NCBI GenBank assembly: GCA_964016885.1
Contig: OZ024743.1
Coordinates: forward strand, 52,886,001-52,950,000
Reading direction: 5' to 3'
From: Eledone cirrhosa
Lineage: Eukaryota
DNA length: 64,000 nt
Below the pieces are notes generated by a model. It saw only the letters and a list, made by a program, of their open reading frames with translations. It searched no databases and was not told where the DNA came from. Shown piece after piece: positions 2,874 through 31,180 of this stretch (position 1 is the stretch's first letter; each line of letters starts with the position of its first letter). A program made the translations under genes and the position numbers.

Positions 2874-3107
2874 TATAAAATCATAGAAATATTCAAAAAA
2901 ATTTCTTAAAAATAAAACAAATTCAAAATGGTTCTTGAAATTCTGCAATATTCTTCTAGAAATTCTGAAATAAAGTTTCAGAAATATCAAAAATATTTTT
3001 ATATTAAGATATGTTTCTGGAACGACTAAAATATAGTTCTAAAAATACTAATGAATGGATTTTAGAAAATACGAATAAAAAATCGAAAACAAATGCAAGG
3101 AACTCAC

Positions 3108-3257
3108 CATACATAGTTTGGATAACAGCAATATCAAATTTGGACAGAGTACAGTCACCTTTCATCCATGGCCACATGATGGACAGAGGCCAACGGGAGT
3201 GCATCAGTCCGAGACTGTGGCCAAATTCATGAACGGCCACACAGTACAATTCAGCAT
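3108..3257 (-). CDS. MMP exon with the zinc-binding motif and Met-turn
   Basis: cttcatcag|AT...TATG|gtgagt; 150 nt, phase 1 to 1. Encodes NAELYCVAVHEFGHSLGLMHSRWPLSIMWPWMKGDCTLSKFDIAVIQTMYG (HExxHxxGxxHS, SIMxP, D...IQxxYG typical of matrixins). Confidence 0.95.
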
Positions 3258-3694
3258 CTGATGAAGAGAAGGGAAAAAAAGAATTAATTGAAGTAGAGAT
3301 CTCGCCCACCTATCCCCGAGAGCGCCGTGAGGGAAGAGTCCTCAAACACTCCTTCCAGTGGATCCTGTCATATATGAAAAGTCCGTTAGTGGGTTAGATT
3401 GCCCTAGTAATTTATTATTCTCAGTAATAAATTAAGGTAACTTTCAGTCACTCTAATTTTCTTTTATTTTGCTTTCTCCGACTTATTACCTTGGTAACCT
3501 AACCCACTTGTATTGCACAGCTTTCTAGACAGACTCTTTAATTTCATACTCCACAGTGCTTCAAGCAAACTATCACACCTTTTTATATAGGAGATGACGA
3601 AGGACCGTGACAAGTGGAGAGATGTTGTGCTGAATAGAACCCGTCCCACCCTTGCAAGCAGGGAAAAGCGGACGTAAGATGATGATGATGATGA

Positions 3695-4019: not shown

Positions 4020-4063
4020 AACAATGATAATAATAATAATAATAATATAGTCCAACAACTCAC

Positions 4064-4289
4064 TTCTGTTGATGAAATTTCTGGAACCCCAATCTTCGTC
4101 AGCATCGAAGTGGGCATCACCAGAGAGACCCGGAGAGTTGTCGTAAGGGAAGAACGCATGCGCCAAAATACCCCCACTTCCGTCAAATGGACTGCCGTCA
4201 CCATGTTTGCCAGTGAGGAAATTGACTTCAATGTCAACTGGACCACGTCTCTTGCGAGTGAATGTCAACTGAGTGACACGTTCCCAGGC
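4064..4289 (-). CDS. MMP catalytic-domain exon (structural Zn/Ca-binding segment)
   Basis: ctctaacccag|GCC...AGAA|gtgagt; 226 nt, phase 0 to 1. AWERVTQLTFTRKRRGPVDIEVNFLTGKHGDGSPFDGSGGILAHAFFPYDNSPGLSGDAHFDADEDW matches the MMP HGDxxPFDGxGGxLAHAFxP...GDAHFDxDExW consensus. Confidence 0.95.
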
Positions 4290-4404
4290 CTGGGTTAGAG
4301 TGGAGTGTGGAGAGAAATATAGAGTTATAGTTACAACTTCATGATAACAACAACAGTAACAACAACTACAACAGCAGTAACAACAACAGCAACAACAACA
4401 ACCC

Positions 4405-5230
4405 TGGTTTCTGATTTAGGTAGAAATCCAGCAATTTTCCATGGAGAGGAAAGTCGATTATATCGACCCCAATGCATTACTGGTACTTTATTCTATCATT
4501 CCCAGAAAGAAGAAAGGCAAAGTCGACCTCGGAGGGATTTGAACTCAGAACGTAAAGGGCTGAAATAAATATTCAGTGCATGTTGAAATATGCTCTAAAG
4601 ATTCTACCGACCCACCATAGCAGCAGCAGCAGCAGCAATAATAATAATTGTTTCTACTTCGATGCTGACGAAGATTGGGGTTCCAGAAATTTCATCAACA
4701 GAAGTGAGTTGTTGGACTATATTATTATTATTATCATTGTTATTATCCCAGTGTATTACTGGTACTTTATTTTATCGACCCCGTAAGGATGAAAGGCAAA
4801 GTAAATTTCGCCGGGGTTTGAACTGCAGCAGCAATAATAATAATTGCTTCTACTTTTGGCACAAGGCCAGCAATTAGCCAGTACATTACTGGTACTTTAT
4901 TTTATCGACCCCCGTAAGGATGAAAGGCAAAGTTGACCTCGGCGGGATTTGAACTCAGAATGGAAAGAGCCGTAATTCTATGGGTCAAAGCATGGCGTCC
5001 GACCCTCTACCGATACTGCCAATCCACCAATGGTTTCTCATATAGGCACAAGGCCAATAATTTTGGCGGAGGGGAAAGACGATTAATTCGACCCCAGAGC
5101 GTTACTGGTACTTTATATTATCGACCTCGTAAGGATGAAAGACTAAGATTATCTCAGTGGGATTTGAACTCACCGCAAAGGGACGTAAGTCTATGCCACA
5201 AAACATGTCCGACGCTCTATCGTAATATCG
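4405..5230 (-). mobile_element. Cluster of about four SINE family 1 copies
   Basis: Repeated actggtactttattttatcgacccc...gggatttgaactcag. Confidence 0.85.
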
Positions 5231-5249
5231 GAACATGTGGTTTATCACT

Positions 5250-5670
5250 CCTGATTGCCATTACTTAGGTGCCTTTCCAGAGATCTAGGCCACCCGGCAC
5301 ACAAGTCAGCTAGAGAGTACCTTCTCTATTTAAGGCTTTTAACATCTTGGGCTGAATTTCATCCTCCCCAGTGGCCTAGCCACATTTGAGATCTTTAATT
5401 ACACTTGTGACCTCAGCCTTCAACAGGTTAGTCATCACTCCCAGATGCACCTTGTATACATCCAAAGATGCTGTTGTGACTGGCTTTAGGAGATCAGAAA
5501 AGTATTCTCTCTCCCTTGCGAGGTTGCATCTCTCTGAAGAGAGAAGAACTCCAGACATGTTCCTGATAGCAGGATAGGAGGAGGACTTCTTATTACGAAG
5601 TTGGCAGATGGTCTGCCAGAACATTTTATCTGAAGTCAGATCTTAACGCCAAAGTCCTCCCATGTCTTAA
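5250..5670 (-). mobile_element. Degenerate RTE-like LINE fragment (region upstream of RT)
   Basis: FWQTICQLRNKK...REYFSDLL...AEVTSVIKDLKCG*ATGEDEIQPKMLKAL, with stops. Confidence 0.65.
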
Positions 5671-5871
5671 CTTGGACGCCTTTTCTGTCTTCACTGCGAC
5701 TTTTCGCGCCTACTCTACCGATCTCATGACATCGATAATTTCCATATATGGTATGAACATTAACCAAAACAGTCATCTAAAATGGCAACATATCCATCCT
5801 GTGGGTTATGCCTGAGATAACTGACGGAAAAATCGCTGCCAAGAAACCAGATATCAAAATAAAAAGCAAAA

Positions 5872-6985
5872 CAGATAGGACATGTAGCCTGATAGATATA
5901 GTTGTACCAACTGATAGGACATGTAGCCTGATAGATATTGTTGTACCAACTGATAGGATATGTAGCATGATAGATATTGTTGTACCAACTGGTAGGACAT
6001 GTAGCCTGATAGATATTGTTGTACCAGCTGATAGGACATGTAGCATGATAGATAGTGTTGTACCAACTGATAGGACATGTAGCCTGATAGATATTGTTGT
6101 ACCAACTGATAGGACATGTAGCCTGATAGATATTGTTGTACCAACTGATAGGACATGTAGCCTGATAGATATTGTTGTACCAGCTGATAGGACATGTAGC
6201 ATGATAGATATTGTTGTACCAACTGATAGGACATGTAGCATGATAGATATTGTTGTACCAGCTGATAGGACATGTAGCCTGATAGATATTGTTGTACCAA
6301 CTGATAGGATATGTAGCATGATAGATATTGTTGTACCAACTGGTAGGACATGTAGCCTGATAGATATTGTTGTACCAGCTGATAGGACATGTAGCATGAT
6401 AGATATTGTTGTACCAACTGATAGGACATGTAGCCTGATAGATATTGTTGTACCAACTGATAGGACATGTAGCCTGATAGATATTGTTGTACCAACTGAT
6501 AGGACATGTAGCCTGATAGATATTGTTGTACCAGCTGATAGGACATGTAGCATGATAGATATTGTTGTACCAACTGATAGGACATGTAGCATGATAGATA
6601 TTGTTGTACCAGCTGATAGGACATGTAGCCTGATAGATATTGTTGTACCAACTGATAGGATATGTAGCATGATAGATATTGTTGTACCAACTGGTAGGAC
6701 ATGTAGCCTGATAGATATTGTTGTACCAGCTGATAGGACATGTAGCATGATAGATATTGTTCAATATCTATCATGCTACATGTCCTATCAGCTGGTACAA
6801 CAATATCTATCAGGCTACCTGTCCTATTTGTTGGTACAACTATATCTATCAGGCTACATGTCCTATCAGTTGGTACAACTATATCTATCATGCTACATGT
6901 CCTATCAGTTGGTACAACAATATCTATCAGGCTACATGTCCTATCAGTTGGTACAACTATATCTATCAGGCTACATGTCCTATCT
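5872..6985. repeat. 39-bp minisatellite (about 23 forward and 6 inverted copies)
   Basis: Unit ctgataggacatgtagcctgatagatattgttgtaccaa; orientation flips near 6760. Confidence 0.95.
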
Positions 6986-7313
6986 GTTTTGCTTTTTATT
7001 TTGATATCTGGTTTCTTGGCAGCGATTTTTCCGTCAGTTATCTCAGGCATAACCCACAGGATGGATATGTTGCCATTTTAGATGACTGTTTTGGTTAATG
7101 TTCATACCATATATGGAAATTATCGATGTCATGAGATCGGTAGAGTAGGCGCGAAAAGTCGCAGTGAAGACAGAAAAGGCGTCCAAGTTCTGATAGGACA
7201 TGTAAAGGCGTCCAAGTTCTGATAGGACATCTAGCCTGATAGATATTGCTGTACCAGCTGATAAGAATACATCTGTAGATACAAAAAAAATAAATAAATA
7301 AAATGCCAAAGTA

Positions 7314-10300
7314 CAGTGGAGGATGACCACAACTGTTGCAGTGGAGGATGACCACAACTATTGCAGTGGAGGATGACCACAAATATTCCAGTGGAGGATG
7401 ACCACAACTGTTACAGTGGGGGATGACCACAACTATTCCTGTGGAGGATGACCACAACTGTTGCAGTGGACGATGACCACAACTATTGCAGTGGAGGATG
7501 ACCACAACTGTTGCAGGGGAGGATGACCACAACTATTGCAGTGGAGGATGACCACAACTATTGCAGTGGAGGATGACCACAACTGTTTCAGTGGAGGATG
7601 ACCACAACTGTTGCAGTGGAGGATGACCACAACTATTGCAGTGGAGGATGACCACAACTGTTGCAGTGGAGGATGACCACAACTATTGCAGTGGAGGATG
7701 ACCACAACTGTTGCAGTGGAGGATGACCACAACTATTGCAGTGGAGGATCACCACAACTATTGCAGTGGAGGATGACCACAACTATTGCAGTGGAGGATG
7801 ACCACAACTGTTGCAGTGGAGGATGACCACAACTATTGCAGTGGAGGATGACCACAACTGTTGCAGTGGAGGATCACCACAAATGTTGCAGTGGAGGCTG
7901 ACCACAACTGTTGCAGTGGAGGATGACCACAACTATTGCAGTGGAGGATGACCACAACTATTGCAGTGGAGGATGACCACAACTGTTGCAGTGGAGGATG
8001 ACCACAACTATTGCAGTGGAGGATGACCACAACTGTTGCAGTGGAGGATGACCACAACTGTTGCAGTGGAGGATGACCACAACTGTTGCAGTGGAGGATG
8101 ACCACAACTGTTGCAGTGGAGGATGACCACAACTATTGCAGTGGAGGATGACCACAACTATTCCTGTGGAGGATGACCACAACTGTTGCAGTGGAGGATG
8201 ACCACAATTATTGCAGTGGAGGATGACCACAACTATTGCAGTGGAGGATGACCAAAACTATTCCTGTGGAGGATGACCACAACTATTGCAGTGGAGGATG
8301 ACCACAACTGTTACAGTGGGGGATGACCACAACTATTCCTGTGGAGGATGACCACAACTATTGCAGTGGAGGATGACCAAAACTATTGCAGTGGAGGATG
8401 ACCACAACTATTCCTGTGGAGGATGACCACAACTATTCCTGTGGAGGATGACCTCAACTATTCCAGTGGAGGATGACCACAACTGTTCAGTGGAGGATGA
8501 CCACAACTGTTACAGTGGGGGATGACCACAACTATTCCTGTGGAAGATGACCACAACTATTGCAGTGGAGGATGACCAAAACTATTGCAGTGGAGGATGA
8601 CCACAACTATTCCAGTGGAGGATGACCACAACTATTGCAGTGGAGGATGACCACAACTGTTACAGTGGGGGATGACCACAACTATTCCTGTGGAGGATGA
8701 CCACAACTATTGCAGTGGAGGATGACCAAAACTATTGCAGTGGAGGATGACCACAACTATTCCTGTGGAGGATGACCACAACTATTCCTGTGGAGGATGA
8801 CCTCAACTATTCCAGTGGAGGATGACCACAACTGTTGCAGTGGAGGATGACCACAACTATTCCAGTGGAGGATGACCACAACTATTCCTGTGGAGGATGA
8901 CCACAACTGTTGCAGTGGAGGATGACCACAACTATTGCAGTGGAGGATGACCACAACTATTGCAGTGGAGGATGACCACAACTATTGCAGTGGAGGATGA
9001 CCACAACTATTCCTGTGGAGGATGACCACAACTATTGCAGTGGAGGATGACCACAATTATTGCAGTGGAGGATGACCACAACTATTGCAGTGGAGGATGA
9101 CCACAACTATTCCAGTGGAGGATGACCACAACTATTCCTGTGGAGGATGACCACAACTATTGCAGTGGAGGATGACCACAATTATTGCAGTGGAGGATGA
9201 CCACAACTATTGCAGTGGAGGATGACCACAACTATTCCTGTGGAGGATGACCACAACTATTGCAGTGGAGGATGACCACAACTATTGCAGTGGAGGATGA
9301 CCACAACTATTGCAGTGGAGGATGACCACAACTATTGCAGTGGAGGATGACCACAACTATTCCTGTGGAGGATGACCACAACTATTCCTGTGGAGGATGA
9401 CCACAACTATTGCAGTGGAGGATGACCACAATTATTGCAGTGGAGGATGACCACAACTATTCCTGTGGAGGATGACCTCAACTATTCCAGTGGAGGATGA
9501 CCACAACTATTGCAGTGGGGGATGACCACAACTATTGCAGTGGAGGATGACCACAACTATTCCTGTGGAGGATGACCACAACTATTCCAGCGGAGGATGA
9601 CCACAACTATTCCAGTGGAGGATGACCACAACTATTCCTGTGGAGGATGACCTCAACTATTCCAGTGGAGGATGACCACAACTATTCCTGTGGAGGATGA
9701 CCACAACTATTCCAGTGGAGGATGACCACAACTATTGCAGTGGAGGATGACCACAACTATTCCTGTGGAGGATGACCACAACTATTCCAGTGGAGGATGA
9801 CCACAACTATTGCAGTGGAGGATGACCACAACTATTCCTGTGGAGGATGACCACAACTATTCCAGTGGAGGATGACCACAACTATTCCAGTGGAGGATGA
9901 CCACAACTATTGCAGTGGAGGATGACCACAACTATTCCTGTGGAGGATGACCACAACTATTCCAGTGGAGGATGACCACAACTATTCCAGTGGAGGATGA
10001 CCACAACTATTGCAGTGGAGGATGACCACAACTATTCCTGTGGAGGATGACCACAACTATTCCAGTGGAGGATGACCACAACTATTGCAGTGGAGGATGA
10101 CCACAACTATTCCTGTGGAGGATGACCACAACTATTCCTGTGGAGGATGACCACAACTATTGCAGTGGAGGATGACCACAACTATTGCAGTGGAGGATGA
10201 CCACAACTATTCCAGTGGAGGATGACCACAACTATTCCTGTGGAGGATGACCACAACTATTCCAGTGGAGGATGACCACAACTATTCCAGTGGAGGATGA

Positions 10301-13300
10301 CCACAACTATTCCTGTGGAGGATGACCACAACTGTTACAGTGGGGGATGACCACAACTATTGCAGTGGAGGATGACCACAACTATTGCAGTGGAGGATGA
10401 CCACAACTATTGCAGTGGAGGATGACCACAACTATTCCTGTGGAGGATGACCACAACTATTCCAGTGGAGGATGACCACAACTATTGCAGTGGAGGATGA
10501 CCACAACTATTCCTGTGGAGGATGACCACAACTATTCCAGTGGAGGATGACCACAACTATTGCAGTGGAGGATGACCACAACTATTCCTGTGGAGGATGA
10601 CCACAACTATTCCTGTGGAGGATGACCACAACTATTGCAGTGGAGGATGACCACAACTATTGCAGTGGAGGATGACCACAACTATTCCAGTGGAGGATGA
10701 CCACAACTGTTACAGTGGGGGATGACCACAACTATTGCAGTGGAGGATGACCACAACTATTGCAGTGGAGGATGACCACAACTATTGCAGTGGAGGATGA
10801 CCACAACTATTCCAGTGGAGGATGACCACAACTATTCCTGTGGAGGATGACCACAACTATTCCAGTGGAGGATGACCACAACTATTGCAGTGGAGGATGA
10901 CCACAACTATTCCTGTGGAGGATGACCACAACTATTCCAGTGGAGGATGACCACAACTATTGCAGTGGAGGATGACCACAACTATTCCTGTGGAGGATGA
11001 CCACAACTGTTACAGTGGGGGATGACCACAACTATTGCAGTGGAGGATGACCACAACTATTGCAGTGGAGGATGACCACAACTATTGCAGTGGAGGATGA
11101 CCACAACTATTCCAGTGGAGGATGACCACAACTATTCCTGTGGAGGATGACCACAACTGTTACAGTGGGGGATGACCACAACTATTGCAGTGGAGGATGA
11201 CCACAACTATTGCAGTGGAGGATGACCACAACTATTGCAGTGGAGGATGACCACAACTATTCCTGTGGAGGATGACCACAACTATTCCAGTGGAGGATGA
11301 CCACAACTATTGCAGTGGAGGATGACCACAACTATTCCTGTGGAGGATGACCACAACTATTCCAGTGGAGGATGACCACAACTATTGCAGTGGAGGATGA
11401 CCACAACTATTCCTGTGGAGGATGACCACAACTATTCCTGTGGAGGATGACCACAACTATTGCAGTGGAGGATGACCACAACTATTGCAGTGGAGGATGA
11501 CCACAACTATTCCAGTGGAGGATGACCACAACTATTCCTGTGGAGGATGACCACAACTATTCCAGTGGAGGATGACCACAACTATTCCAGTGGAGGATGA
11601 CCACAACTATTCCTGTGGAGGATGACCACAACTGTTACAGTGGGGGATGACCACAACTATTGCAGTGGAGGATGACCACAACTATTGCAGTGGAGGATGA
11701 CCACAACTATTCCAGTGGAGGATGACCACAACTATTCCTGTGGAGGATGACCTCAACTATTCCAGTGGAGGATGACCACAACTATTCCAGTGGAGGATGA
11801 CCACAACTATTGCAGTGGAGGATGACCACAACTATTCCTGTGGAGGATGACCACAACTATTGCAGTGGAGGATGACCACAACTATTCCAGTGGAGGATGA
11901 CCACAACTATTCCTGTGGAGGATGACCTCAACTATTCCAGTGGAGGATGACCACAACTATTCCAGTGGAGGATGACCACAACTATTGCAGTGGAGGATGA
12001 CCACAACTATTCCTGTGGAGGATGACCACAACTATTCCAGTGGAGGATGACCACAACTATTCCTGTGGAGGATGACCACAACTATTGCAGTGGAGGATGA
12101 CCACAACTATTCCTGTGGAGGATGACCACAACTATTCCAGCGGAGGATGACCACAACTATTCCAGTGGAGGATGACCACAACTATTCCTGTGGAGGATGA
12201 CCTCAACTATTCCAGTGGAGGATGACCACAACTATTCCTTTGGAGGATGACCACAACTATTCCAGTGGAGGATGACCACAACTATTGCAGTGGAGGATGA
12301 CCACAACTATTCCTGTGGAGGATGACCACAACTATTCCTGTGGAGGATGACCACAACTATTGCAGTGGAGGATGACCACAACTATTGCAGTGGAGGATGA
12401 CCACAACTATTCCAGTGGAGGATGACCACAACTATTCCTGTGGAGGATGACCACAACTATTCCAGTGGAGGATGACCACAACTATTCCAGTGGAGGATGA
12501 CCACAACTATTCCTGTGGAGGATGACCACAACTGTTACAGTGGGGGATGACCACAACTATTGCAGTGGAGGATGACCACAACTATTGCAGTGGAGGATGA
12601 CCACAACTATTCCAGTGGAGGATGACCACAACTATTCCTGTGGAGGATGACCACAACTATTCCAGTGGAGGATGACCACAACTATTGCAGTGGAGGATGA
12701 CCACAACTATTGCAGTGGAGGATGACCACAACTATTCCAGTGGAGGATGACCACAACTATTCCTGTGGAGGATGACCTCAACTATTCCAGTGGAGGATGA
12801 CCACAACTATTCCAGTGGAGGATGACCACAACTATTCCTGTGGAGGATGACCTCAACTATTCCAGTGGAGGATGACCACAACTATTCCTGTGGAGGATGA
12901 CCACAACTATTGCAGTGGAGGATGACCACAACTATTGCAGTGGAGGATGACCACAACTATTGCAGTGGAGGATGACCACAACTATTGCAGTGGAGGATGA
13001 CCACAACTATTGCAGTGGAGGATGACCACAACTATTGCAGTGGAGGATGACCACAACTATTCCTGTGGAGGATGACCACAACTATTCCAGTGGAGGATGA
13101 CCACAACTATTGCAGTGGAGGATGACCACAACTATTGCAGTGGAGGATGACCACAACTATTCCAGTGGAGGATGACCACAACTATTCCTGTGGAGGATGA
13201 CCTCAACTATTACAGTGGAGGATGACCACAACTATTGCAGTGGAGGATGACCACAACTATTGCAGTGGAGGATGACCACAACTATTGCAGTGGAGGATGA

Positions 13301-16300
13301 CCACAACTATTGCAGTGGAGGATGACCACAACTATTGCAGTGGAGGATGACCACAACTATTGCAGTGGAGGATGACCACAACTATTCCAGTGGAGGATGA
13401 CCACAACTATTCCTGTGGAGGATGACCTCAACTATTACAGTGGAGGATGACCACAACTATTGCAGTGGAGGATGACCACAACTATTCCAGTGGAGGATGA
13501 CCACAACTATTCCTGTGGAGGATGACCACAACTATTCCAGTGGAGGATGACCACAACTATTGCAGTGGAGGATGACCACAACTATTCCAGTGGAGGATGA
13601 CCACAACTATTCCTGTGGAGGATGACCTCAACTATTACAGTGGAGGATGACCACAACTATTGCAGTGGAGGATGACCACAACTATTGCAGTGGAGGATGA
13701 CCACAACTATTGAAGTGGAGGATGACCTCAACTATTACAGTGGAGGATGACCACAACTATTGCAGTGGAGGATGACCACAACTATTCCAGTGGAGGATGA
13801 CCACAACTATTGCAGTGGAGGATGACCACAACTGTTGCAGTGGAGGATGACCACAACTGTTGCAGTGGAGGATGACCACAACTATTGCAGTGGAGGATGA
13901 CCACAATTATTGCAGTGGAGGATGACCACAACTATTGCAGTGGAGGATGACCACAACTGTTGCAGTGGAGGGTGACCAAAACTATTCCTGTGGAGGATGA
14001 CCACAACTATTGCAGTGGAGGATGACCACAACTATTCCAGTGGAGGATGACCACAACTATTCCAGTGGAGGATGACCACAACTATTCCTGTGGAGGATGA
14101 CCACAACTATTCCTGTGGAGGATGACCTCAACTATTCCAGTGGAGGATGACCACAACTATTGCAGTGGAGGATGACCACAACTGTTTCAGTGGAGGATGA
14201 CCACAACTGTTGCAGTGGAGGATGACCACAACTGTTGCAGTGGAGGATGACCACAACTGTTGCAGTGGAGGATGACCACAACTATTGCAGTGGAGGATGA
14301 CCACAACTATTGCAGTGGAGGATGACCACAACTGTTCCTGTGGAGGATGACCACAACTATTGCAGTGGAGGATGACCACAACTATTGCAGTGGAGGATGA
14401 CCACAACTGTTGCAGTGGAGGATGACCACAACTATTGCAGTGGAGGATGACCACAACTATTCCAGTGGAGGATGACCACAACTATTCCAGTGGAGGATGA
14501 CCACAACTATTCCTGTGGAAGATGACCACAACTATTCCAGTGGAGGATGACCACAACTATTCCTGTGGAGGATGACCTCAACTATTACAGTGGAGGATGA
14601 CCACAACTATTGCAGTGGAGGATGACCACAACTATTCCAGTGGAGGATGACCACAACTATTCCTGTGGAGGATGACCACAACTATTCCTGTGGAGGATGA
14701 CCTCAACTATTCCAGTGGAGGATGACCACAACTATTGCAGTGGAGGATGACCACAACTGTTTCAGTGGAGGATGACCACAACTGTTGCAGTGGAGGATGA
14801 CCACAACTGTTGCAGTGGAGGATGACCACAACTGTTGCAGTGGAGGATGACCACAACTATTGCAGTGGAGGATGACCACAACTATTGCAGTGGAGGATGA
14901 CCACAACTATTGCAGTGGAGGATGACCACAACTATTGCAGTGGAGGATGACCACAACTGTTGCAGTGGAGGATGACCACAACTATTGCAGTGGAGGATGA
15001 CCACAACTATTCCAGTGGAGGATGACCACAACTATTGCAGTGGAGGATGACCACAACTGTTGCAGTGGAGGATGACCACAACTATTGCAGTGGAGGATGA
15101 CCACAACTATTCCAGTGGAGGATGACCACAACTATTCCTGTGGAGGATGACCACAACTATTCCTGTGGAGGATGACCTCAACTATTCCAGTGGAGGATGA
15201 CCACAACTATTGCAGTGGAGGATGACCACAACTATTCCTGTGGAAGATGACCACAACTATTCCAGTGGAGGATGACCACAACTATTCCTGTGGAAGATGA
15301 CCACAACTATTCCAGTGGAGGATGACCACAACTATTCCTGTGGAAGATGACCACAACTATTCCAGTGGAGGATGACCACAACTATTCCTGTGGAGGATGA
15401 CCTCAACTATTACAGTGGAGGATGACCACAACTATTGCAGTGGAGGATGACCACAACTATTCCAGTGGAGGATGACCACAACTATTCCTGTGGAGGATGA
15501 CCACAACTATTCCTGTGGAGGATGACCTCAACTATTCCAGTGGAGGATGACCACAACTATTGCAGTGGAGGATGACCACAACTGTTTCAGTGGAGGATGA
15601 CCACAACTGTTGCAGTGGAGGATGACCACAACTGTTGCAGTGGAGGATGACCACAACTGTTGCAGTGGAGGATGACCACAACTGTTGCAGTGGAGGATGA
15701 CCACAACTGTTGCAGTGGAGGATGACCACAACTATTCCAGTGGAGGATGACCCAACTATTCCTGTGGAGGATGACCACAACTATTGCAGTGGAGGATGAC
15801 CACAACTATTGCAGTGGAGGATGACCACAACTGTTGCAGTGGAGGATGACCACAACTATTGCAGTGGAGGATGACCACAACTATTCCTGTGGAGGATGAC
15901 CACAACTATTGCAGTGGAGGATGACCACAACTGTTGCAGTGGAGGATGACCACAACTGTTGCAGTGGAGGATGACCACAACTGTTGCAGTGGAGGATGAC
16001 CACAACTATTGCAGTGGAGGATGACCACAACTATTGCAGTGGAGGATGACCACAACTGTTGCAGTGGAGGATGACCACAACTATTGCAGTGGAGGATGAC
16101 CACAACTATTGCAGTGGAGGATGACAACAACTATTGCAGTGGAGGATGACCACAACTATTCCTGTGGAGGATGACCACAACTATTGCAGTGAAGGATGAC
16201 CACAACTGTTGCAGTGGAGGATGACCACAACTGTTGCAGTGGAGGATGACCACAACTATTAAAGTGGAGGATGACCACAACTGTTGCAGTGGAGGATGAC

Positions 16301-17620
16301 CACAACTGTTGCAGTGGAGGATGACCACAACTATTAAAGTGGAGGATGACCACAACTGTTGCAGTGGAGGATGACCACAACTGTTGCAGTGGAGGATGAC
16401 CACAACTGTTGCAGTGGAGGATGACCACAACTGTTGCAGTGGAGGATGACCACAACTGTTGCAGTGGAGGATGACCACAACTATTGCAGTGGAGGATGAC
16501 CACAACTGTTGCAGTGGAGGATGACCACAACTATTAAAGTGGAGGATGACCACAACTGTTGCAGTGGAGGATGACCACAACTGTTGCAGTGGAGGATGAC
16601 CACAACTATTAAAGTGGAGGATGACCACAACTGTTGCAGTGGAGGATGACCACAACTGTTGCAGTGGAGGATGACCACAACTGTTGCAGTGGAGGATGAC
16701 CACAACTGTTGCAGTGGAGGATGACCACAACTGTTGCAGTGGAGGATGACCACAACTGTTGCAGTGGAGGATGACCACAACTATTGCAGTGGAGGATGAC
16801 CACAACTATTGCAGTGGAGGATGACCACAACTGTTGCAGTGGAGGATGACCACAACTGTTGCAGTGGAGGATGACCACAACTATTGCAGTGGAGGATGAC
16901 CACAACTATTGCAGTGGAAAATGACCACAACTGTTGCAGTGGAGGATGACCACAACTATTGCAGTGGAGGATGACCACAACTGTTGCAGTGGAGGATGAC
17001 CACAACTGTTGCAGTGGAGGATGACCACAACTATTAAAGTGGAGGATGACCACAACTATTGCAGTGGAGGATGACCACAACTATTGCAGTGGAAAATGAC
17101 CACAACTGTTGCAGTGGAGGATGACAACTGTTGCAGTGGAGGATGACAACAACTATTGCAGTGGAGGATGACCACAACTGTTGCAGTGGAGGATGACCAC
17201 AACTGTTGCAGTGGAGGATGACGACAACTGTTGCAGTGGAGGATGACCACAACTATTAAAGTGGAGGATGACCACAACTATTGCAGTGGAGGATGACCAC
17301 AACTATTGCAGTGGAAAATGACCACAACTGTTGCAGTGGAGGATGACAACTGTTGCAGTGGAGGATGACAACAACTATTGCAGTGGAGGATGACCACAAC
17401 TGTTGCAGTGGAGGATGACGACAACTGTTGCAGTGGAGGATGACCACAACTATTAAAGTGGAGGATGACCACAACTATTGCAGTGGAGGATGACCACAAC
17501 TATTGCAGTGGAAAATGACCACAACTGTTGCAGTGGAGGATGACAACTGTTGCAGTGGAGGATGACAACAACTATTGCAGTGGAGGATGACCACAACTAT
17601 TCCAGTGGAGGATGACCACA
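7314..17620. repeat. 25-bp tandem satellite (about 410 copies)
   Basis: Unit gtggaggatgaccacaactattgca, with variants tattcct, tattcca, tgttgca and tattaaa. Confidence 0.98.
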
Positions 17621-17912
17621 ACAACCATTCCTGTGGTAATAGGATTAATTCCCAAATCATCGGACCTTGGCGTCCTTTCCTGCAGGATCAGCAAAGTTAC
17701 AAAAGATTGGGTTACCCGGAGCAGCCCACATTCTCAAGCGAGCTCTCTCCCTACAACGAAAATTTCTGTTGCCTTAGTTACAAGGCTTGTACCCTGCATT
17801 AGAGAAACAGAGCAGAACCAAGGGAAATGACTCAACACAAATAATAACATGGTTTCTAATTTAGGAAGAAGCCAGCAATATGGCGGTAGAGGTATTAAAT
17901 GCATGTACTCAC

Positions 17913-18013
17913 TCTTAAGGCAGCTGTTATAACGTATTCCAATTGGTGTTTGTTGGGGTATTTTGGCGGGGTGTTGATGTTGTAAGTCAGGTCATTCTTG
18001 TACCATTTAGAAC
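17913..18013 (-). CDS. MMP exon: N-terminus of the catalytic domain
   Basis: aaatacag|GT...AGA|gtgagt; 101 nt, phase 1 to 0, joining the 4289 exon in frame. GSKWYKNDLTYNINTPPKYPNKHQLEYVITAALR resembles the MMP G-x-KW-x-K-x-x-LTY...A(F/L) start. Confidence 0.9.
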
Positions 18014-18625: not shown

Positions 18626-21511
18626 ATGTACCCGTAACATAATTCTGATGGAGGTCTCTCATAACACACTATGATACAATGTACCCGTAACATAATTCTA
18701 ATGGAGGTCTCTCATAACACACTATGATACAATGTACCCTTAACATAATTCTGATGGAGGTCTCTCATAACACACTATGATACAATGTACCCTTAACATA
18801 ATTCTGAGAGAGGTCTCTCATAACATACTATGATACAATGTACCCTTAACATAATTCTGATGGAGGTCTCTCATAACACACTATGATACAATGTACCCTT
18901 AACATAATTCTGAGGGAGGTCTCTCATAACTTACTATGATACAATGTACCCTTAACATAATTCTAATGGAGGTCTCTGATAACATACTATAATACAATGT
19001 ACCCTTAACATAATTCTGATGGAGGTCTCTCATAACACACTATGATACAATGTACCCTTAACATAATTCTGAGGGAGGTCTCTCATAACACACTATGATA
19101 CAATGTACCCTTAACATAATTCTAATGGAAGTCTCTCATAACACACTATGATACAATGTACCCTTAACATAATTCTAATGGAGGTCTCTCATAACATACT
19201 ATAATACAATGTACCCTTAACATAATTCTAATGGAGGTCTCTCATAACACACTATGATACAATGTACCCTTAACATAATTCTAATGGAGGTCTCTCATAA
19301 CATATTATGATACAATGTACTCTTAACATAATTCTGAGGGAAGTCTCTCATAACACACTATGATACAATGTACCCTTAACATAATTCTAATGGAGGTCTC
19401 TCATAACACACTATGATACAATGTACCCTTAATATAATTCTAATGGAGGTCTCTCATAACATACTATGATATAATGTACCCTTAACATAATTCTAATGGA
19501 AGTCTCTCATAACACACTATGATACAATGTACCCTTAACATAATTCTAATGGAGGTCTCTCATAACACACTATGATACAATGTACCCTTAACATAATTCT
19601 AATGGAAGTCTCTCATAACACACTATAATACAATGTACCCTTAACATAATTCTAATGGAGGTCTCTCATAACACACTATGATACAATGTACCCTTAACAT
19701 AATTCTAATGGAAGTCTCTCATAACACACTATGATACAATGTACCCTTAACATAATTCTAATGGAGGTCTCTCATAACATACTATAATACAATGTACCCT
19801 TAACATAATTCTAATGGAAGTCTCTCATAACACACTATGATACAATGTACCCTTAACATAATTCTAATGGAGGTCTCTCATAACATACTATAATACAATG
19901 TACCCTTAACATAATTCTAATGGAGGTCTCTCATAACACACTATGATACAATGTACCCTTAACATAATTCTAATGGAGGTCTCTCATAACATACTATGAT
20001 ACAATGTACTCTTAACATAATTCTGAGGGAAGTCTCTCATAACACACTATGATACAATGTACCCTTAACATAATTCTGAGGGAAGTCTCTCATAACACAC
20101 TATGATATAATGTACCCTTAACATAATTATAATGGAGGTCTTTCATAACACACTATGATACAATGTACCCTTAACATAATTCTGAGGGAGGTCTCTCATA
20201 ACACACTATGATACAATGTACCCTTAACATAATTCTAATGGAGGTCTTTCATAACACACTATGATACAATGTACCCTTAACATAATTCTGAGGGAAGTCT
20301 CTCATAACACACTATGATATAATGTACCCTTAACATAATTATAATGGAGGTCTTTCATAACACACTATGATACAATGTACCCTTAACATAATTCTGAGGG
20401 AGGTCTCTCATAACACACTATGATACAATGTACCCTTAACATAATTCTAATGGAGGTCTTTCATAACACACTATGATACAATGTACCCTTAACATAATTC
20501 TGAGGGAAGTCTCTCATAACACACTATGATATAATGTACCCTTAACATAATTATAATGGAGGTCTTTCATAACACACTATGATACAATGTACCCTTAACA
20601 TAATTCTGAGGGAGGTCTCTCATAACACACTATGATACAATGTACCCTTAACATAATTCTAATGGAAGTCTCTCAGAACACACTATGATACAATGTACCC
20701 TTAAGATAATTCTGAGGGAAGTCTCTCATAACACACTATGATACAATGTACCCTTAACATAATTCTAATGGAGGTCTCTCATAACACACTATGATACAAT
20801 GTACCCTTAACATTATTCTGATGGAGGTCTCTCATAACATACTATGATACAATGTACCTTTAACATAATTCTGAGGGAGGTCTCTCATAACATACTATGA
20901 TACAATGTACCCTTAACATAATTCTAATGGAGGTCTCTCATAACACACTATGATATAATGTACCCTTAACATAATTATAATGGAGGTCTTTCATAACACA
21001 CTATGATACAATGTACCCTTAACATAATTCTGAGGGAGGTCTCTCATAACATACTATGATACAATGTACCCTTAACATAATTTTGAGGGAGGTCTCTCAT
21101 AACATTCTATGATACAATGTACCCTTAACATAATTATATTGGAGGTCTCTCATAACACACTATGATACAATGTACCCGTAACATAATTCTGAGGGAGGTC
21201 TCTCATAACACACTATGATACAATGTACCCTTAACATAATTATAATGGAGGTCTCTCATAACACACTATGATACAATGTACCCATAACATAATTCTAATG
21301 GAGGTCTCTCATAACAAACTATGATACAATGTACCCTTAACATAATTCTGAGGGAGGTCTCTCATAACACACTATGATACAATGTACCCTTAACATAATT
21401 ATAATGGAGGTCTCTCATAACACACTATGATACAATGTACCCATAACATAATTCTAATGGAGGTCTCTCATAACAAACTATGATACAATGTACCCTTAAC
21501 ATAATTCTAAT
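18626..21511. repeat. 53-bp tandem satellite (about 54 copies)
   Basis: Unit aatgtacccttaacataattctaatggaggtctctcataacacactatgatac. Confidence 0.97.
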
Positions 21512-21984
21512 TGTTTTTTCCGTATATCTTTATAAATATAATTTTCCACTGTTTTAAATTAGTTATTTTCTCTATTATTTGTTACTGTTGTTGCTTTGTT
21601 GAAATATAGGTCCTTTATTGTATCATAGTGTGTTATGAGAGACCTCCATTTCAACAAAGCAACAACAAAGCAACAACAGTAACAAATAATTAAGTGTTAA
21701 TTATATATATAAAATATAGCAAAGGGAAATAGTCACATTGTATGGAAATAGCATAAGAAAATAACTAATTTAAAACAGTGGAAAATTATATTTATAAAGA
21801 TATACGGAAAAAACAGTGAAAATATTATTTAAATTCCATTCTCTTTTCTTTTTTTTTATTATTTCATTTTTCATGTGACTTTCTCTGTGATTATATTTCT
21901 GTCTACATCGGCTGACTGTCCTATGTTAAGACATAAGTGCAAAATATATCAGCCTTATAAAGTAGCCTCCCTTGTTGTTGACTC

Positions 21985-22226: not shown

Positions 22227-23524
22227 CAAAATGTTTTATAAATATTTGACATAACCAAGGATAATATACCTTAATGGTTCAAGTTATCCCTGGAAAGTGA
22301 AGGGAAGAGAAAAAGACCAGATATTTAAAATTATTAAGATGAGTATGCAAATGAGGTTTATGTAAAAGGGATGAAAAAAACCGTTATTTTAGACGCTATG
22401 GAAAATTTAAATAATTATGATAAGTTATTGTATGTGTAGGAAGGAAGAGAGAGGAATAATTAATTTGGGGAAAAAGATTTGTTACCTATATTATGAGTTA
22501 TACTATTGTATACATAATCAATTAGATTATATGAAGAATTATGGTTGTAAGTATTTTTATCTTATTATATTAGGATAGGTTATATGTATATAAATATCTG
22601 TATATATATTAATAAGTTGCGTATGTATTGATTGTTTATATATCAAATATGAGTTACGAAGGAAGTTGAAATTGTATTTTCAAGTTGAGAGAATAAAATA
22701 ATTTGTGGATTCAAAAATTTTGTTCAACATTGAGAATGTTTTAGAATATTGTTAATTTAATGAAGCTATATAGATTATCAAACAAAAAATCGTTATGTTT
22801 TCACGATTGATAATAGTGTTTATGTTTGTAACGATTGAGAAAGGAAAGATAACTCTAATTTTGTTTAATAGAGAAAAAAATTATATATTATTTTGTGTGA
22901 GATCACTTATTTTAGTCAAAAGATGTGTGAATGTTTGGATAACAAAAGAGAGGAAAAAATGTAATGTGTTTTTCAAAGAACTATCTTAAAGAGGATAAAT
23001 TTTCAGAACATCATTTAAAGATTATCAATCTACTCAAAATATATTCTTACAAAAGAATGTGAGAAATTAAAAATAATGTCGGAATTAAAAATAGTGTCGG
23101 AATTAAAAGGTGTAGGAAAATAAAATATTAAATATATATATTAAAAATATTATAAATATTAGAGGTATAAAACATTTCTGAAATATTAAGAATATTAAAG
23201 AATATTAAAATATTTAAAATATTTAAAAATATTTTTTTTAATATTTAAAAAAAATATTAAAAAATAAATATTAAAAAAATATTAAAAAATATAAAAAAAT
23301 TAAAAAAAATTACATTTAAATATTTTAAGGAAATAGGATCATTTTGAAGGTTTATAGGGATATTATAATTTTAAAATAGTTTTGAACGTGGAATTTTGGC
23401 GATGTTTGCAAGAAGAAATTCTGCTTATATATATATATATATATAGTGCAGTTTTAAATCAACATATGTTGATTTAAAACTGCACTATTCACAAGTGTTT
23501 TTTAACCTTCATATCATGTCTCCC

Positions 23525-26392: not shown

Positions 26393-26923
26393 GTGTGTAT
26401 TATAGTATGGTATATACGATATCAGTAATACAATACCGTGGTATATGCTCCAATACAGACTTCTTTTGCCCAGTCTTGTGTGTGACACATTCAGGTGGAG
26501 TCCTTGATAATCGGGAACCCCACATTTTCTCCTAGGTTTCCGTGTTTCCTTTACAGGGACCCCTGAAACAAATAAATTAAGGGTAATGTTATGATACGAT
26601 TTTGTTTAGAAGTAAATCAACCACTACGGCTTTTAAATTATATATACTAGTACATAACCTGTTATTTTACAGACGGAAATAGAAATCAGTTTAACTAGAT
26701 TTGTGCATTGTGTGTATTATGGCCTAGTGGTTAGGGTGTTAAACTCATGATTATAAGATTGTGGGTTCAATTCCTACATCAAGTGACGTATTCTCTAGTA
26801 GGACGCTTCGTTTCATACGGCTTTTTGTGATAGGAATGAGGCCCCTATCACTAAAACACCCGAGAAACCTCCTATGAAGGCGGCCAGCACAACCTTCTTA
26901 GCTATGAGATGTAAATTTCGTTT

Positions 26924-27154: not shown

Positions 27155-27865
27155 GTGGTTACACAACAGTTAGTTCACCATACCGAGAACAATTGTTTCA
27201 CCTTAGTGGATCTTCAGCTCGGAATGGGCATGGTTATAGGAACAGGAAAGACAACCGTACGAACGCGCATGTGCAGAAACCGGTCATTTGACACAGGCAA
27301 TACTAGACTGCGTGCGAGGGGTGTAAGGGAGATAACTGCGAAAGTCCGAAAATTTTTTAGGTTGAAAATAAAATTACGAAGAATCAGTCCGGAGCCTTGT
27401 AATTATGCAATAGGTGTTTGGCGACGTGTGAAAAATTCATTTCTCGTGTTTAGGCAATCACTATTGCGTAATCTCTTTAGAATAGTTATTCGTTCGTCAA
27501 TACATAAGCCACACGTCGGATTTCCCCTTGCGTATGGCTTGGACTTAATGATGGCTTTCCATGGAGTAGTCTATACTTGAGTTCTTGAGGGACCATACGT
27601 GGCTCGTGAGTTTCGTGGATGAACGTCTGTCCGGGTATCTGAAGGTAGACTGGTGGTTCAGGAAACGTTCCTTGAATCGGCCCTCCGCCATGCTCACATA
27701 GGATTTGACCTCCTGTGGTTCGTTTGGTCGGTTGGAATTGACCACAGCTTCATAGATTACAGCTGGTGTGTTGCATTGCTGTTGAAGGAGGCAAGCTTCA
27801 GGCTTACGGCAAGAGCACCCTGGTGGGTTGTTGCTCCCAGGGCTACTGGTGACGTGGGCCCTCAT
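27152..27865 (-). mobile_element. 5'-truncated Penelope-like element (GIY-YIG endonuclease plus 3' repeat region)
   Basis: GCSCRKPEACLLQQQCNTPAVIYEAVV...KSYVSMAEGRFKERFLNHQSTFR...STKLTSHVWSLK; hammerhead downstream; abuts (TA)n. Confidence 0.85.
27183..27222 (-). ncRNA. Minimal hammerhead ribozyme in the 3' region of a Penelope fragment
   Basis: ccgag CUGAAGA uccacuaaggu GAAA caauug UU cucgg; palindromic stem III ACAAUUGU; about 320 nt downstream of the GIY-YIG ORF 27545-27865. Confidence 0.75.
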
Positions 27866-27869
27866 GCTC

Positions 27870-30800
27870 TTAGCGCATATATAAATAAATTATACAATTA
27901 TCAAAGTTGTGTTCAAATCATTTAATAGCTGACAATCGTTTCTTCCAAACTCTCGTTTGGAGTCATCGGAGCATTATCAATGTTTGCACATATAATTACC
28001 CTCCTATCCAACTGAACAATAATATAGATACATATAAATTGATGTTGTGAGCAACAATTTCGTATTTGCAGGGTGGAATGGATGTGACATATATTTTACG
28101 AGAATTGTACAATAATTGTACAAACATTCAAGTTCAAATTCAAATTCAAATTCAAATTAAAATCAAAATCAAAATCAAAAACATGGAGTGGAATACATGC
28201 AACAGTTAAAACAAGGGAATAGTCCAAATATTAAGAAAGCATTGAGGAAGCAGCTTTGAGAAAGGAAGAGTGCGATAACAAATCATATGCAGGCGTGTGG
28301 ATAGTGTGATTGCGTAAGTCATATACATGAGAAGGAGACAAGCAAAGCTATTATGCATATATAGATGAATAAATAATGCAGTTGAAGCAAATATGTTAAT
28401 GTATTAGAGTCTATGGTGGGTGTTGAATGTTGATGGTGTTCGAATTAATGTGTGTTGAGAAACATACAGTTTTTGCATACTTTTCCATGACATATGTTGA
28501 ATTAAATTTCAGTTAATGTTTATATTGAGTGTTTTAAGTTAGTTAGAGCAATGGATCGTAAATTAGTCTTAATGAATTCATATTCATAGACTATATTTGA
28601 TCAACCGTTAAATTTTCAATCGTTAATTTCCGGAAGTGAATAAGGGGAGCTAATGCGTAAGAGGAGGTAACTAGCTAATTAAGTTCAATTCAGTTATTAA
28701 AATTCTTTGTTCTAATACACAATATAATGTGATACCATTGGATCTCTGTTACATACCCTGTATATATATGCCTGATTTTAAATACAGTGTATTCTACTAT
28801 CATACATTAAAGGTTTCTTTAGATTGTTATCTATTCATTACTGGACAAGGTATATGTTATGAAGGATTATACAGCTATTAATATGTCATAGTAGATATGC
28901 CATATGTGCAATAATATAATCCCTAATATAGAATACTATTACATTCTATATTTAATTATAAGTGTATATATACTTTATTACTATTATGTTGTGTAATTTA
29001 AGCATTTAATTATACAATTACAAATGCACACTTAGTTTATCATCACACATTACATTAAATGTCTCTACATACCAAGTGCCAAATATCCATTACTGTGTAA
29101 GATATAATTAATCTATTGTAGTTATATCACAAGGTGGTAACTCTATGTCTAAATCTAACTGCTATTGCAGAGCATAAGGTTATAGATGAATAGGAGTTGT
29201 GTAGCGGAAAGAGTTGGTCGAGGGGTTTGTGGTTGTGGGTGCTGCTAAGTCCTAGATGTGTAGTGTCAATGGTGGTGGGGAATTCAAATCTGACATTGTT
29301 GTATACTAACAGCTAGGTTTAAAGTTATGGAACGAGTGTCGGTACCGGTGTTGGCACGAGGAAAATGTCTCTGACTTTCTATTCAGGAGGTCTAGTTTCG
29401 AAAAGATTATAGTATGGGTCTCCAGAAGGCAGAGATTACACAATTTATTCGGTGGTTTATACGATGAGGCCCTACCTACTACTTCCCATTGGAGTGTAAA
29501 TGGTCTATTCCTAGTTTTCAGAGAGTGTATGTAGCTAGATAAAGAAGTGGAGCTGGCTAGATTGTGTTTCTTGAAAGAGTGGAGGTGCGAGTTGTATCTC
29601 GTCTTGAAGTTGTTTGAGGTAGAACCTATATATGTTTTAGAAGAGTTGTTTGCGTTGACGGTGCATGAGTAGATGATGTCTTTAGTTAAGCAATTATTAC
29701 CTAAGGGGCAAGTTCTGTTAGTTCTACAGTTACATTTATTCTGAGTGTTAGCTTGCCGGTTCCTTTGTTGTGAAGAATTCTGGTTGCTAGGGGTAGCACT
29801 AGGGTAATGATGCCCATCATTCGTATTGTTATTGATTTCATTAGTGCTATTATCATTATTACTATTATTACTATTATTACTACTATTGTTTACAGGTACT
29901 AAGTTTACCTCCTGTTGTGTTTTAATTAGTTGGAAATAGTTATTAATCTTCCTTTTATTACTACTAGCTATATGGTATGCTATGTTAGGTGTGGTGGAGT
30001 ACGATATTTTAATTGTATTTTTATTGATAACGCTATGGTACTTGTGGCCGGTCGGGAAGTTTTTTTCTAAGATTGAGAAGAAAGCCTTAGGCAAGTTGGT
30101 AGAGACGTTTAGATTGAAAGGGGGATTGAAGAATGTATTAGCTCTCCTATTTTTGTTTATATTATTATTTTTTTAGGTATTCATATCCCTGTTTAAATTA
30201 TTATTGTGGTGTTTAATTTGGTGCGAGTTAAGTTTGGTATTAATCTTCGTCTTAGAGTTATAGTGGTTAGTGTTTTTACTATTTTTCCTCATGGCCATAT
30301 TATGATATGAGAAATAATGTTGTAACTATGTGATTTTATAGGTAGGAATTCAATCTCATTCTTATGTCCTGATTTAGCTAAGGCCTCATTATAGTATTGT
30401 GAATTATTGTTAAATATAGTTTCATTATATGATAGATTAGCGATTCTATTAGATATTCCTTTGGTAATAGAGTTTAATATGGATTTAGGGTGGTTAGAGT
30501 TGGTGTTCACATAAATTAGTTTTTCTTTAGGTTTATGATAGGGTGTGTATACTCTAGAGTCTAGGCTAAGGGTAGCGTCAAGGAAGTTGACGTTTTTAAT
30601 GTTTTATCTAAGGTGATACTTAAGTTGTAGTTTTTGAAAATTTTGTGTAACTGTTTCTTAGTTCTTTCTATATTAAAATTTGTATAGTCTATGAGAAGAA
30701 GCGCATCATCGCGCTATAAACCACCGTTGAGGTAGGGTAGGTTCTTATGGATTTCATTAAGTATGTATAGGCCCACCAAATAGGTGACCTGCGCCGAGTC

Positions 30801-31180
30801 ACTAGATCCCATGGTTATGTCGAAGTTGTTATGCGTATCCTTGCGGGTCCATAATTGTTCTTCAAATGTGATTATGGTTTTTCGGGCCGCAAGTATGACA
30901 TCAATTTGGGATCTAGTCAGGTCACTATTGTTCATGGCCATAATAAGAGCCTTATTTAATAGGATAGGGGAAATAGAGGTGTAGTAAGAATTGATATCAA
31001 ATTGTATAAATTTTTTATTTTTACACTCTTTAATACCCTTGAACCATTTAATTGGTTAAGGTATATTTTGTGCTTAAATTGTGGGATTATTTTATAATAT
31101 TTTCTTGCTGATAATACGAATGCCAGACTTGGAAGGGCAAATCAGTCTAATTGAAGAGTTACTAATGAAGTCTTTATTAT
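27870..31180 (-). mobile_element. Penelope-like element: disrupted RT plus GIY-YIG endonuclease
   Basis: RT pieces (QFDINSYYTSIS; FDITMGSSDSAQVTYLVGLYIL; GGL*RDDAL; NFLDATL; YHKPK; NSNHPKSI) and ORF 29306-30094 with CNCR..CPLGNNCL..IIYSC..YIGST..FKTRYNSH..CNLCLLE..LLNRKSE..CQHR. Confidence 0.92.
27924..27975 (-). ncRNA. Hammerhead motif (U4>C variant) downstream of a Penelope element
   Basis: aaugcu CCGAUGA cuccaaacgagaguuuggaa GAAA cgauug UC agcuauu; 7-bp stem II and a GUC cleavage triplet. Confidence 0.65.

Follow-up and report, generated by a model that had tools for sequence, protein, structure and literature searches.

The window analyzed here, a 64,000-nucleotide stretch of Eledone cirrhosa DNA, carries within an MMP intron a dead, 5′-truncated fragment of an RLE LINE that bears two single-locus minisatellites and a fold-back inversion. 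The arrays and the inversion are probably products of host copying errors made long after insertion, and a function for the structure is unlikely. The features are listed in Table 1.

Table 1. Positions of the LINE relic, its repeat arrays, the inversion, and the MMP exons in the window
Feature	Position	Strand	Remarks
MMP exon, zinc-binding motif and Met-turn	3108–3257	−	
MMP exon next in order	4064–4289	−	borders intron 4290–17912
Fragment of an unrelated abundant LINE (ORF2 between endonuclease and RT), presumably RTE-like	5231–5714	−	adjoins relic 5′ end; at least 40 matches, those outside the window limited to query 29–515
Relic start, W-x-M ... KPD motif region	5713–5869	+	15 of 19 relatives (recovered via the 3′ end) also match, in order; median identity 80% to the 37 copies
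39-bp minisatellite, 22.9 units	5870–6761	+	unit contains LID codons; 9-unit (351-bp) higher-order repeat, units 3–11, 12–20, and 21–23
Fold-back inverted copy of 5669–6096	6762–7189	−	2-nt loop at 6760–6761; 57-bp perfect arms; 5.8 inverted 39-bp units with variants of their own; 201 bp of non-array DNA
29-bp tandem duplication	7175–7230	+	spans the switch back to the forward strand
Last parent-like 39-bp unit and relic continuation	7219–7315	+	right end without 28 bp of the parent
25-bp minisatellite, ~413 units	7316–17604	+	four main variants; internal block duplications of 13–17 units at lags of 33–86 units
Parent 28-bp interval (between two short GTGG/TGTGG repeats), remaining endonuclease coding region, 3′ UTR, and short decayed AAT tail	17605–17848	+	
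MMP exon, start of catalytic domain	17913–18013	−	donor site ~65 bp from relic tail
MMP pro-domain exon, cysteine switch	26437–26562	−	

The parentage and anatomy of the structure were established here. The relic spans 5713–17848 (12,136 bp in its expanded form) and derives from a parent fragment of ~0.5 kb, a 5′-truncated RLE non-LTR element. A collapsed relic of 482 bp, built by script from coordinates, aligned with most family copies as a single BLAST piece at 68–75% identity (gaps counted). Among the 51 loci examined, 37 near-full distinct copies were colinear with it, with a mean ungapped identity of 76%, and it matched the P0001 protein in order at residues 249–266, 268–376 (55%, E = 6e-30), and 366–397. 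These results confirmed the sequence-only reading, which had proposed that a single RLE relic of ~0.5 kb gave rise in situ to both monomers from its endonuclease-coding end, with the parent still flanking them, and which had set colinear alignment to an RLE element as its own test; the peptides that it quoted are also present in the sequence. Its statement that removing the arrays restores a colinear RLE C-terminus does not hold for the arrays alone, whose removal leaves the inversion and the 29-bp duplication in place. The relic has deletions of 28 bp and 9 bp and a coding frame broken by stops and frameshifts. The 28-bp deletion (codons KDLEIEINRM) lies immediately 5′ of the 25-bp array and the 9-bp deletion 3′ of it, between TAGGA repeats; the residues previously given as KVQ are the K-Y codons of the element, read out of frame across the 28-bp deletion. 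The relic diverges from its relatives by 18–24%, and because the 37 compared copies are perhaps not of the closest subfamily, its age is perhaps overestimated.

The parent family, judging from a structure model of P0001, encodes a C-terminal restriction-like endonuclease fold. The top structural matches of the model were R2 proteins, with Z scores of 13.2 (rmsd 4.0, 192 aligned) and 12.8 against 8.9 for the next match, and Foldseek matched it to R2 proteins with E = 2.5e-7; the mean pLDDT of the model was 59, and the C-terminal domain was mostly at 70–94. P0001 was 67% identical to the frame at L029. The homologue P0003 carries RT, knuckle, and RLE, and its best solved-structure match was R2 (E = 1.8e-29). 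A CCHC knuckle was found in L026, L030, and P0001–P0003, and L032 has RT fragments upstream; the RT and the CCHC knuckle, which lie 5′ of the RLE within one ORF in the family, have been lost from the window copy. The family is dispersed as 5′-truncated copies, with at least 150 protein matches spread over many contigs. Against Pfam, none of nine frames reached a family cut-off; RVT_1 (E = 9e-6) and zf-RVT (E = 0.007) matched weakly in relatives, the three window pieces matched nothing, and a PDB sequence search with one RLE frame returned nothing at E ≤ 10.

A run of (AAT/AAC)≥3, which could be tail or target, terminates 33 of the 37 near-full copies. The motifs of the relic resemble, as we take it, those of R4/Dong elements, and a putative R4/Dong placement fits both tail and motifs; no named R4 or Dong protein was among the matches returned. 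Dong, which belongs to the R4 lineage according to PMC3774820, is described as targeting TAA microsatellites (PMC3812793), and Dong-type elements are reported as abundant in Octopus vulgaris (PMC13282606). As far as these sources describe such elements, the relic family is like them in having RT, a CCHC knuckle, a C-terminal RLE, and AAT/AAC 3′ runs, whereas the window copy is a dead 0.5-kb 3′ fragment.

The four minus-strand MMP exons splice to a stop-free frame with a cysteine switch, HExxHxxGxxH, and a Met-turn. The relic occupies 12.1 of the 13.6 kb of the intron (13,623 bp), which agrees with its earlier placement in an MMP intron. A PG_binding_1 search found no exon near the MMP gene, and the first MMP exons are therefore unplaced. 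The locus also illustrates how an intron can grow from ~1.5 to 13.6 kb without new insertions.

In the TRF analysis, the 39-bp array was recovered with 22.9 units (5870–6761) and the 25-bp array with 412.8 units (7314–17622), both with 94% matches and close to the ~23 and ~410 units first read. The 25-bp units fall into 34 types with regional structure and differ from the commonest by a mean of 1.04 nt; 73 standalone array units retain the parent junction form ending in ATTCCT. No fixed higher-order period was found within this array at lags of 1–59. Single-locus status was established by junction counts in this assembly (≤1 mismatch): the 25-bp junction had 156 matches in the genome, every one of them in the window, and the 39-bp junction had 29, of which 26 are in the window, so both arrays are minisatellites and not the satellites they had been called. 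The other three 39-bp matches comprise one two-unit duplication (L043, G000:C12:44156619) and two chance matches (L104 and L105), which were rejected as further duplications. L043 is a separate duplication of the same 39-bp interval; its junction is displaced by 2 bp, and its two units share a private variant. The genome yielded no further duplication of 28 or 25 bp. A DNA search with the 25-bp array, which passed over the window because of its repetitiveness, returned L036 alone, and this was rejected as a relative: its array has a 24-bp unit in at least 88 copies and is unrelated. Open frames of 407 codons run through the 25-bp array on both strands because the unit is stop-free, and they were rejected as a coding signal. 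The 25-bp array could serve as a length-polymorphic marker.

The ends of the 39-bp unit sit on an imperfect direct repeat of the parent (7-of-10 match), and a CAGA..CTGA-type pair 39 bp apart is preserved in 23 of the 37 copies. The 28-bp interval has TGTGG at both ends, and a GTGG pair 28 bp apart is preserved in 17 of the 37. At offsets of 15–60, each copy contains ~21 exact repeats that are at least 5 nt long and made up of three or more letters. L051, the only copy scored, matched at just 6 of 10 at its 28-bp site, in the top 3% of windows. Since repeat pairs are this common, short direct repeats are permissive, not predictive, of the two intervals. Hairpin-driven slippage was considered as a special cause and rejected. 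A 4-bp stem is present in each 25-bp unit, but neither array folded better than shuffles (z −1.1 to +0.3).

Besides the two amplifications, a third event, a fold-back inversion, had been overlooked. Positions 6762–7189 are the reverse complement of 5669–6096 (428 bp, 97%), and the order is forward–inverted–forward; there are two junctions, and the flanking sequence is complete. The inverted 201-bp flank has no mismatches and takes in ~45 bp of the neighboring LINE, and the inversion therefore formed on genomic DNA. There is a weak CCAA-type match near the return junction, and no pre-existing inverted microhomology was identified at the fold-back apex. DUP-TRP/INV-DUP structures and U-turn inversions are template-switch rearrangements, and the locus is like template-switch inverted triplications in its forward–inverted–forward order, two switches, and small duplication at the return junction. 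It differs from those rearrangements in being germline, less than a kilobase in size, and embedded in a minisatellite that was still expanding, with the result that an earlier stage of the array is preserved in the inverted arm. The results established that the 39-bp seed predates the inversion; the earlier description of the two amplifications as independent is unsupported.

The arrays look young relative to the relic, given a unit difference of 1.04 nt and no mismatches in the 201-bp flank against the relic divergence of 18–24%, but the identity of the palindrome arms could also reflect conversion instead of youth. In the origin that we favor, the element would have inserted by target-primed reverse transcription and then decayed. 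The 39-bp interval, at its imperfect 7-of-10 match, and likewise the 28-bp interval with its TGTGG ends may have been duplicated through slippage at the parent's short direct repeats, a 3-bp loss from the latter giving the 25-bp unit. With few 39-bp units present, synthesis would have reversed at the array end, copying the array and the 201-bp flank in inverted orientation, and a return switch onto the last unit would have left the 29-bp duplication. Block duplication by unequal exchange or gene conversion would then have enlarged both arrays, taking the 25-bp array to 10.3 kb and the forward 39-bp arm from perhaps ~6 units to 23; the 351-bp higher-order repeat and the runs of 13–17 units at lags of 33–86 point to such block growth. 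We infer this enzymatic route, the number of units at inversion, and the neutrality of the structure. The inverted arm would serve as an internal time mark, its 201-bp flank unchanged while the forward array grew from few units to 23.

Jurka & Gentles and Haber & Louis are cited in a survey of human minisatellites. As far as described in that survey (PMC3389668), TE-derived minisatellites are head-to-tail arrays with units of 10–100 bp that overlap the parent TE by at least one period; they number 7276 in human (23% of minisatellites), are mostly single-locus, and have been given a direct-repeat initiation model, with the survey accounting for only 6% of the TE-derived cases. Both arrays agree with this definition in unit size, head-to-tail order, and parent overlap, and they resemble the human cases described in being single-locus, bounded by a short direct repeat, and expanded locally afterward. 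Most of those cases have few units, in contrast to the ~413 of one array here, and their Alu/L1 parents differ from the RLE LINE coding region, which carries two arrays, separated by a fold-back inversion, in a 0.5-kb relic. PMC9659126 describes satellites derived from LINE coding sequence (PROsat and Pvc20 from L1 ORF2, chicken HinfI from CR1, and the common cetacean satellite), and PMC3648361 describes CRM-derived tandem repeats of maize. In these accounts, a retrotransposon-derived monomer (ORF2 included) and growth by gene conversion or unequal exchange are shared with our arrays, but those satellites form larger families or loci, several of them centromeric, whereas the arrays here are limited to one intron and have not spread. 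Tandem repeats with flanking TE parents are a documented and common class, and in the loci fetched there was ~1 array per 17 kb (13 in 217.5 kb, of up to ~18 units, some clipped by locus ends). No publication on this locus was found in the open-access literature. We regard the locus not as a new system but as a clear worked example, valuable mainly for its legibility: intact copies by the dozen document the parent state, the seed repeats can be seen, and one seed has recurred separately. Across the family, seed rate can be measured against expansion rate, and such measurements bear on how minisatellites begin, still an open question.

The two arrays may, although we think it unlikely, have arisen as coupled events, in which a fold-back palindrome or a pre-existing fragile site stalls or breaks replication and template-switch repair expands both arrays and their neighbors. 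The chance of two arrays in one 0.5-kb relic under a uniform rate at a single locus is ~4e-4 (from 12 background arrays; 13 distinct ones change it only slightly). Arrays of 39, 25, 32/62, and 53 bp fill most of 5.9–21.5 kb; the 53-bp array is single-locus, and 100 bp from the array end lies a flank duplication in inverted orientation that contains an inverted fragment of the unit; the 25-bp array, far longer than any background array, begins 127 bp past the end of the inversion. Four arrays and two array-linked inversions within 16 kb suggest local coupling, and breaks in yeast yield fold-back insertions with a second template switch, as described in PMC11724301. However, the 39-bp seed and some variants predate the inversion, and so may the 34 unit types of the 25-bp array, given the mismatch-free flank; other palindromes in the window (37537–37905, 23443–23488, and 31767–31823) have no long-unit array, and the 24-bp array of L036 lies elsewhere. 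More doubtful is the idea that fold-back switching and minisatellite growth reinforce each other in this genome, arrays triggering U-turn copies and palindromes driving kilobase-scale expansion, with the 39-bp interval a recurrent, sequence-determined seed across the RLE family; on that view, the history of the cycle would be preserved and dated in this intron, the inverted arm acting as its internal clock.

Maintenance by selection, as an intronic regulatory element or as a dsRNA stem of the MMP pre-mRNA that is edited or diced, is very improbable. The fold-back region has a predicted pre-mRNA stem of 622 pairs in 1541 nt, a splice donor lies near the relic tail, and the MMP frame is open, but any inverted duplication automatically yields a stem, the 407-codon frames follow from the stop-free unit, and nothing comparable occurs elsewhere in the genome. 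Still less credible is that repeats and inversion were written at insertion by slipping and template jumping of the element's reverse transcriptase. Every event does lie within the 3′ end of the element, and the 5′ junction links two different LINEs, but that junction is copied in the inversion, divergence within the arrays and the inverted flank is much lower than that between the relic and its family, neither array occurs in any of the 37 near-full copies, and private changes of this copy are amplified in the arrays.

The reads of run X1 are consistent with a real structure. The contigs of the 25-bp unit had depths of 262–693, compared with 9–13 in the unique flanks, and were 30–80 times deeper than the right flank; the right junction of the array sits on a 514-bp contig, and no contig of an array-free allele on the right flank was among the eight pieces listed. 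An assembly artefact (palindromic chimeric reads or an over-expanded repeat) is the least probable explanation. A palindrome with a 2-nt loop, here with its apex at 6760–6761, is typical of read artefacts, the read check covers the return junction and the right junction of the array, and run X1 may derive from the assembly's own sample. Yet no forward window comes closer to the inverted units than 11 differences in 227 letters, these units have private variants, and a short-read contig covers the return junction without any extra letters. As a possible array-free allele, run X1 offers a 493-bp contig (depth 6.1) with two 39-bp units followed by 405 further letters, but this is perhaps another copy.

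When both arrays and an inversion between them were cut out by coordinates with a script, the collapsed relic (482 bp) aligned as a single block to 37 distinct near-full copies among 51 loci examined (the remaining loci, shorter or duplicates, were left out of this set) and was colinear with the intact homologue P0001 up to the C-terminus. The mean ungapped identity was 76% between the collapsed relic and the 37 copies and 86% among the copies themselves. These results bear out the sequence-only reading, which had traced the arrays to a retrotransposon endonuclease domain, although colinearity with the RLE family required removal of the inversion besides the arrays. With the 3′ flank of the relic as query, 39 of 40 scored matches lay at places other than its own, and the 5′ flank was also matched, in the correct order, in 15 of 19 fetched relatives. 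A protein query gave at least 150 scored matches from 31,506 first-look candidates, which take in more distant RLE families too. The modeled structure of P0001 was most similar to R2 retrotransposon proteins (Z 13.2 and 12.8; next 8.9), and RT, knuckle, and RLE occur together in the homologue P0003. AAT/AAC runs terminate 33 of the 37 near-full copies, which would fit what PMC3812793 states for Dong-type elements; PMC13282606 describes Dong-R4 LINEs as abundant in Octopus vulgaris. The relic itself is damaged, with 28 bp lost left and 9 bp lost right of the 25-bp array and a frame broken by stops and frameshifts.

Features of the relic, its host gene, and its neighbors, in window positions.
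Feature	Position	Strand	Basis
Pfam M10 match	3106-3264	-	Pfam profile
Pfam M10 match	4077-4292	-	Pfam profile
Different LINE fragment, upstream of relic	5231-5714	-	sequence matches, translation
39-bp array, 22.9 units	5870-6761	+	TRF
Reversed block of 39-bp units	6762-6988	-	TRF
25-bp array, 412.8 units	7314-17622	+	TRF
Missing MMP exon	17.9-18.0 kb	-	paralogue-guided search
53-bp array, 54.5 units, single-locus	18626-21511		array scan, genome matches
Cysteine-switch exon of MMP gene	26.4-26.6 kb	-	cysteine switch

The proposed location in an MMP intron was confirmed: four exons joined into an MMP frame without stops, and the relic, antisense to the gene, takes up 12,136 bp of intron 4290-17912, which is 13,623 bp long. 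An 89-bp inverted duplicate (97%; 4023-4111 and 4656-4744) comprises an MMP exon end with its donor site and a copy in the same intron.

The window spans G000:C4:52886001-52950000, and the 3.0-Gb animal assembly to which it belongs probably comes from an octopus, judging by repeat features. TRF recovered both arrays as first described; the observation is real, but the description was incomplete, since it lacked the inversion. In self-comparison of the window, 6762-7189 matched 5669-6096 in reverse complement. The sequence turns back at a palindrome whose perfect 57-bp arms enclose a 2-nt loop; the inverted non-array DNA runs for 201 bp, the forward strand then resumes at a 39-bp unit, and a 29-bp tandem duplication straddles this return junction. 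Read support was drawn from one public run (X1), which may be the assembly's own sample, and covered the return junction, crossed by a 300-bp contig with no other letters, and the right junction of the 25-bp array, covered with its flank by a 514-bp contig with two substitutions. Unit contigs reached depths of 262-693 versus ~9, depth not being equal to copy number. Another X1 contig (493 bp), on 7221-7272, carries two 39-bp units and then 405 letters without placement, which may represent a third duplication or an allele missing from the assembly.

All 156 genome matches of the 25-bp junction lay in the window, as did 26 of 29 for the 39-bp junction (one other was family copy L043, and two were chance). 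The arrays are therefore single-locus minisatellites rather than the satellites originally claimed. Junction matches revealed no arrays of either monomer elsewhere in the assembly. In L043 (1499-1579; G000:C12:44156619-44156700) this 39-bp interval was separately duplicated into two units, with a shifted junction and a private variant in both units. The L043 copy also bears deletions where the 25-bp unit lies.

The parental counterpart of the 25-bp unit is a 28-bp interval flanked by two TGTGG/GTGG repeats, a pair kept at this interval in 17 of 37 copies; the final unit is still 28 bp long, and 73 standalone units keep the parental junction form. The repeat that the 39-bp unit spans is imperfect (7/10 in L051, the one copy scored; top 0.6% of windows). 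These seed repeats should not be over-read, because each family copy has ~21 comparable short repeats and five small duplications occur at other positions in 4 of 37 copies. Neither unit folds better than its shuffles.

Because the inverted arm copies 39-bp units, the 39-bp array preceded the inversion. The two arms mirror each other exactly at units 1-2 and at the last unit but not in their interiors, with 5.8 units and private variants on the inverted side and 22.9 units built on a 9-unit block on the forward side. Since the non-array flank shows 0/201 differences between arms, unit turnover was faster than point mutation, unless the arms are being homogenised by conversion. The 25-bp array contains 34 unit types, four of them main, with regional composition and recurring blocks of 13-17 units, which fits block duplication. 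Taken together, the arrays and inversion are probably the product of neutral processes, in which slippage would start the arrays, a single template switch would make the inversion, and block expansion would lengthen the arrays.

Array and inversion events may instead be locally coupled. The neighboring 53-bp array is also single-locus, and in the adjacent stretch 21572-21691, ~100 bp beyond its end, a 34-bp inverted unit piece (21617-21650) lies within an inverted duplication of flank and so forms a further template-switch scar next to an array. Across 65 fetched loci (217.5 kb of partly overlapping TE flanks, not a random genome sample), 13 distinct arrays were found (period ≥20, ≥5 copies, ≥85% matches). 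At this background rate, computed with 12 arrays, two seeds in one 0.5-kb relic have a probability of ~4e-4 per locus, which is low for a single locus, yet such relics are probably numerous in the genome.

The locus belongs to a known kind, TE-derived minisatellites. PMC3389668 reports 7,276 human minisatellites (23%) as TE-derived, mostly single-locus, and short direct repeats as one recognised start of minisatellites. Satellites derived from LINE coding regions are catalogued in PMC9659126, and fold-back insertions via template switching are described for yeast in PMC11724301.

Further arrays were observed at fetched loci: in L036 (G000:C2:335747982-335751097), an unrelated 24-bp array with 88 or more units that extends past the locus end, and 68-bp ×12 (L048:1987-2829) and 71-bp ×18 (L068:2075-3315) arrays, each beginning just beyond the 3′ end of another RLE-family copy. 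The window also holds a perfect palindrome at 37537-37905 (arms 182 bp, loop 5 nt) and smaller ones at 23443-23488 and 31767-31823, either recent fold-backs or assembly artefacts. Minus-strand frames at 29309-31055, with an RT and GIY-YIG-type endonuclease look and a second fragment at 27489-27889, resemble a Penelope-like element. A fairly intact LINE ORF2 with RT, split over three or four frames, lies at 60046-62406 (-), and LINE fragments also occur within 33.3-35.5 kb and 49.2-52.2 kb. A 2.6-kb (GTG)n-type microsatellite (41917-44539) shows near-total G/T strand bias, and a SINE-like repeat stands in tandem (195 bp ×2.8) at 39136-39670, with scattered copies across the window.
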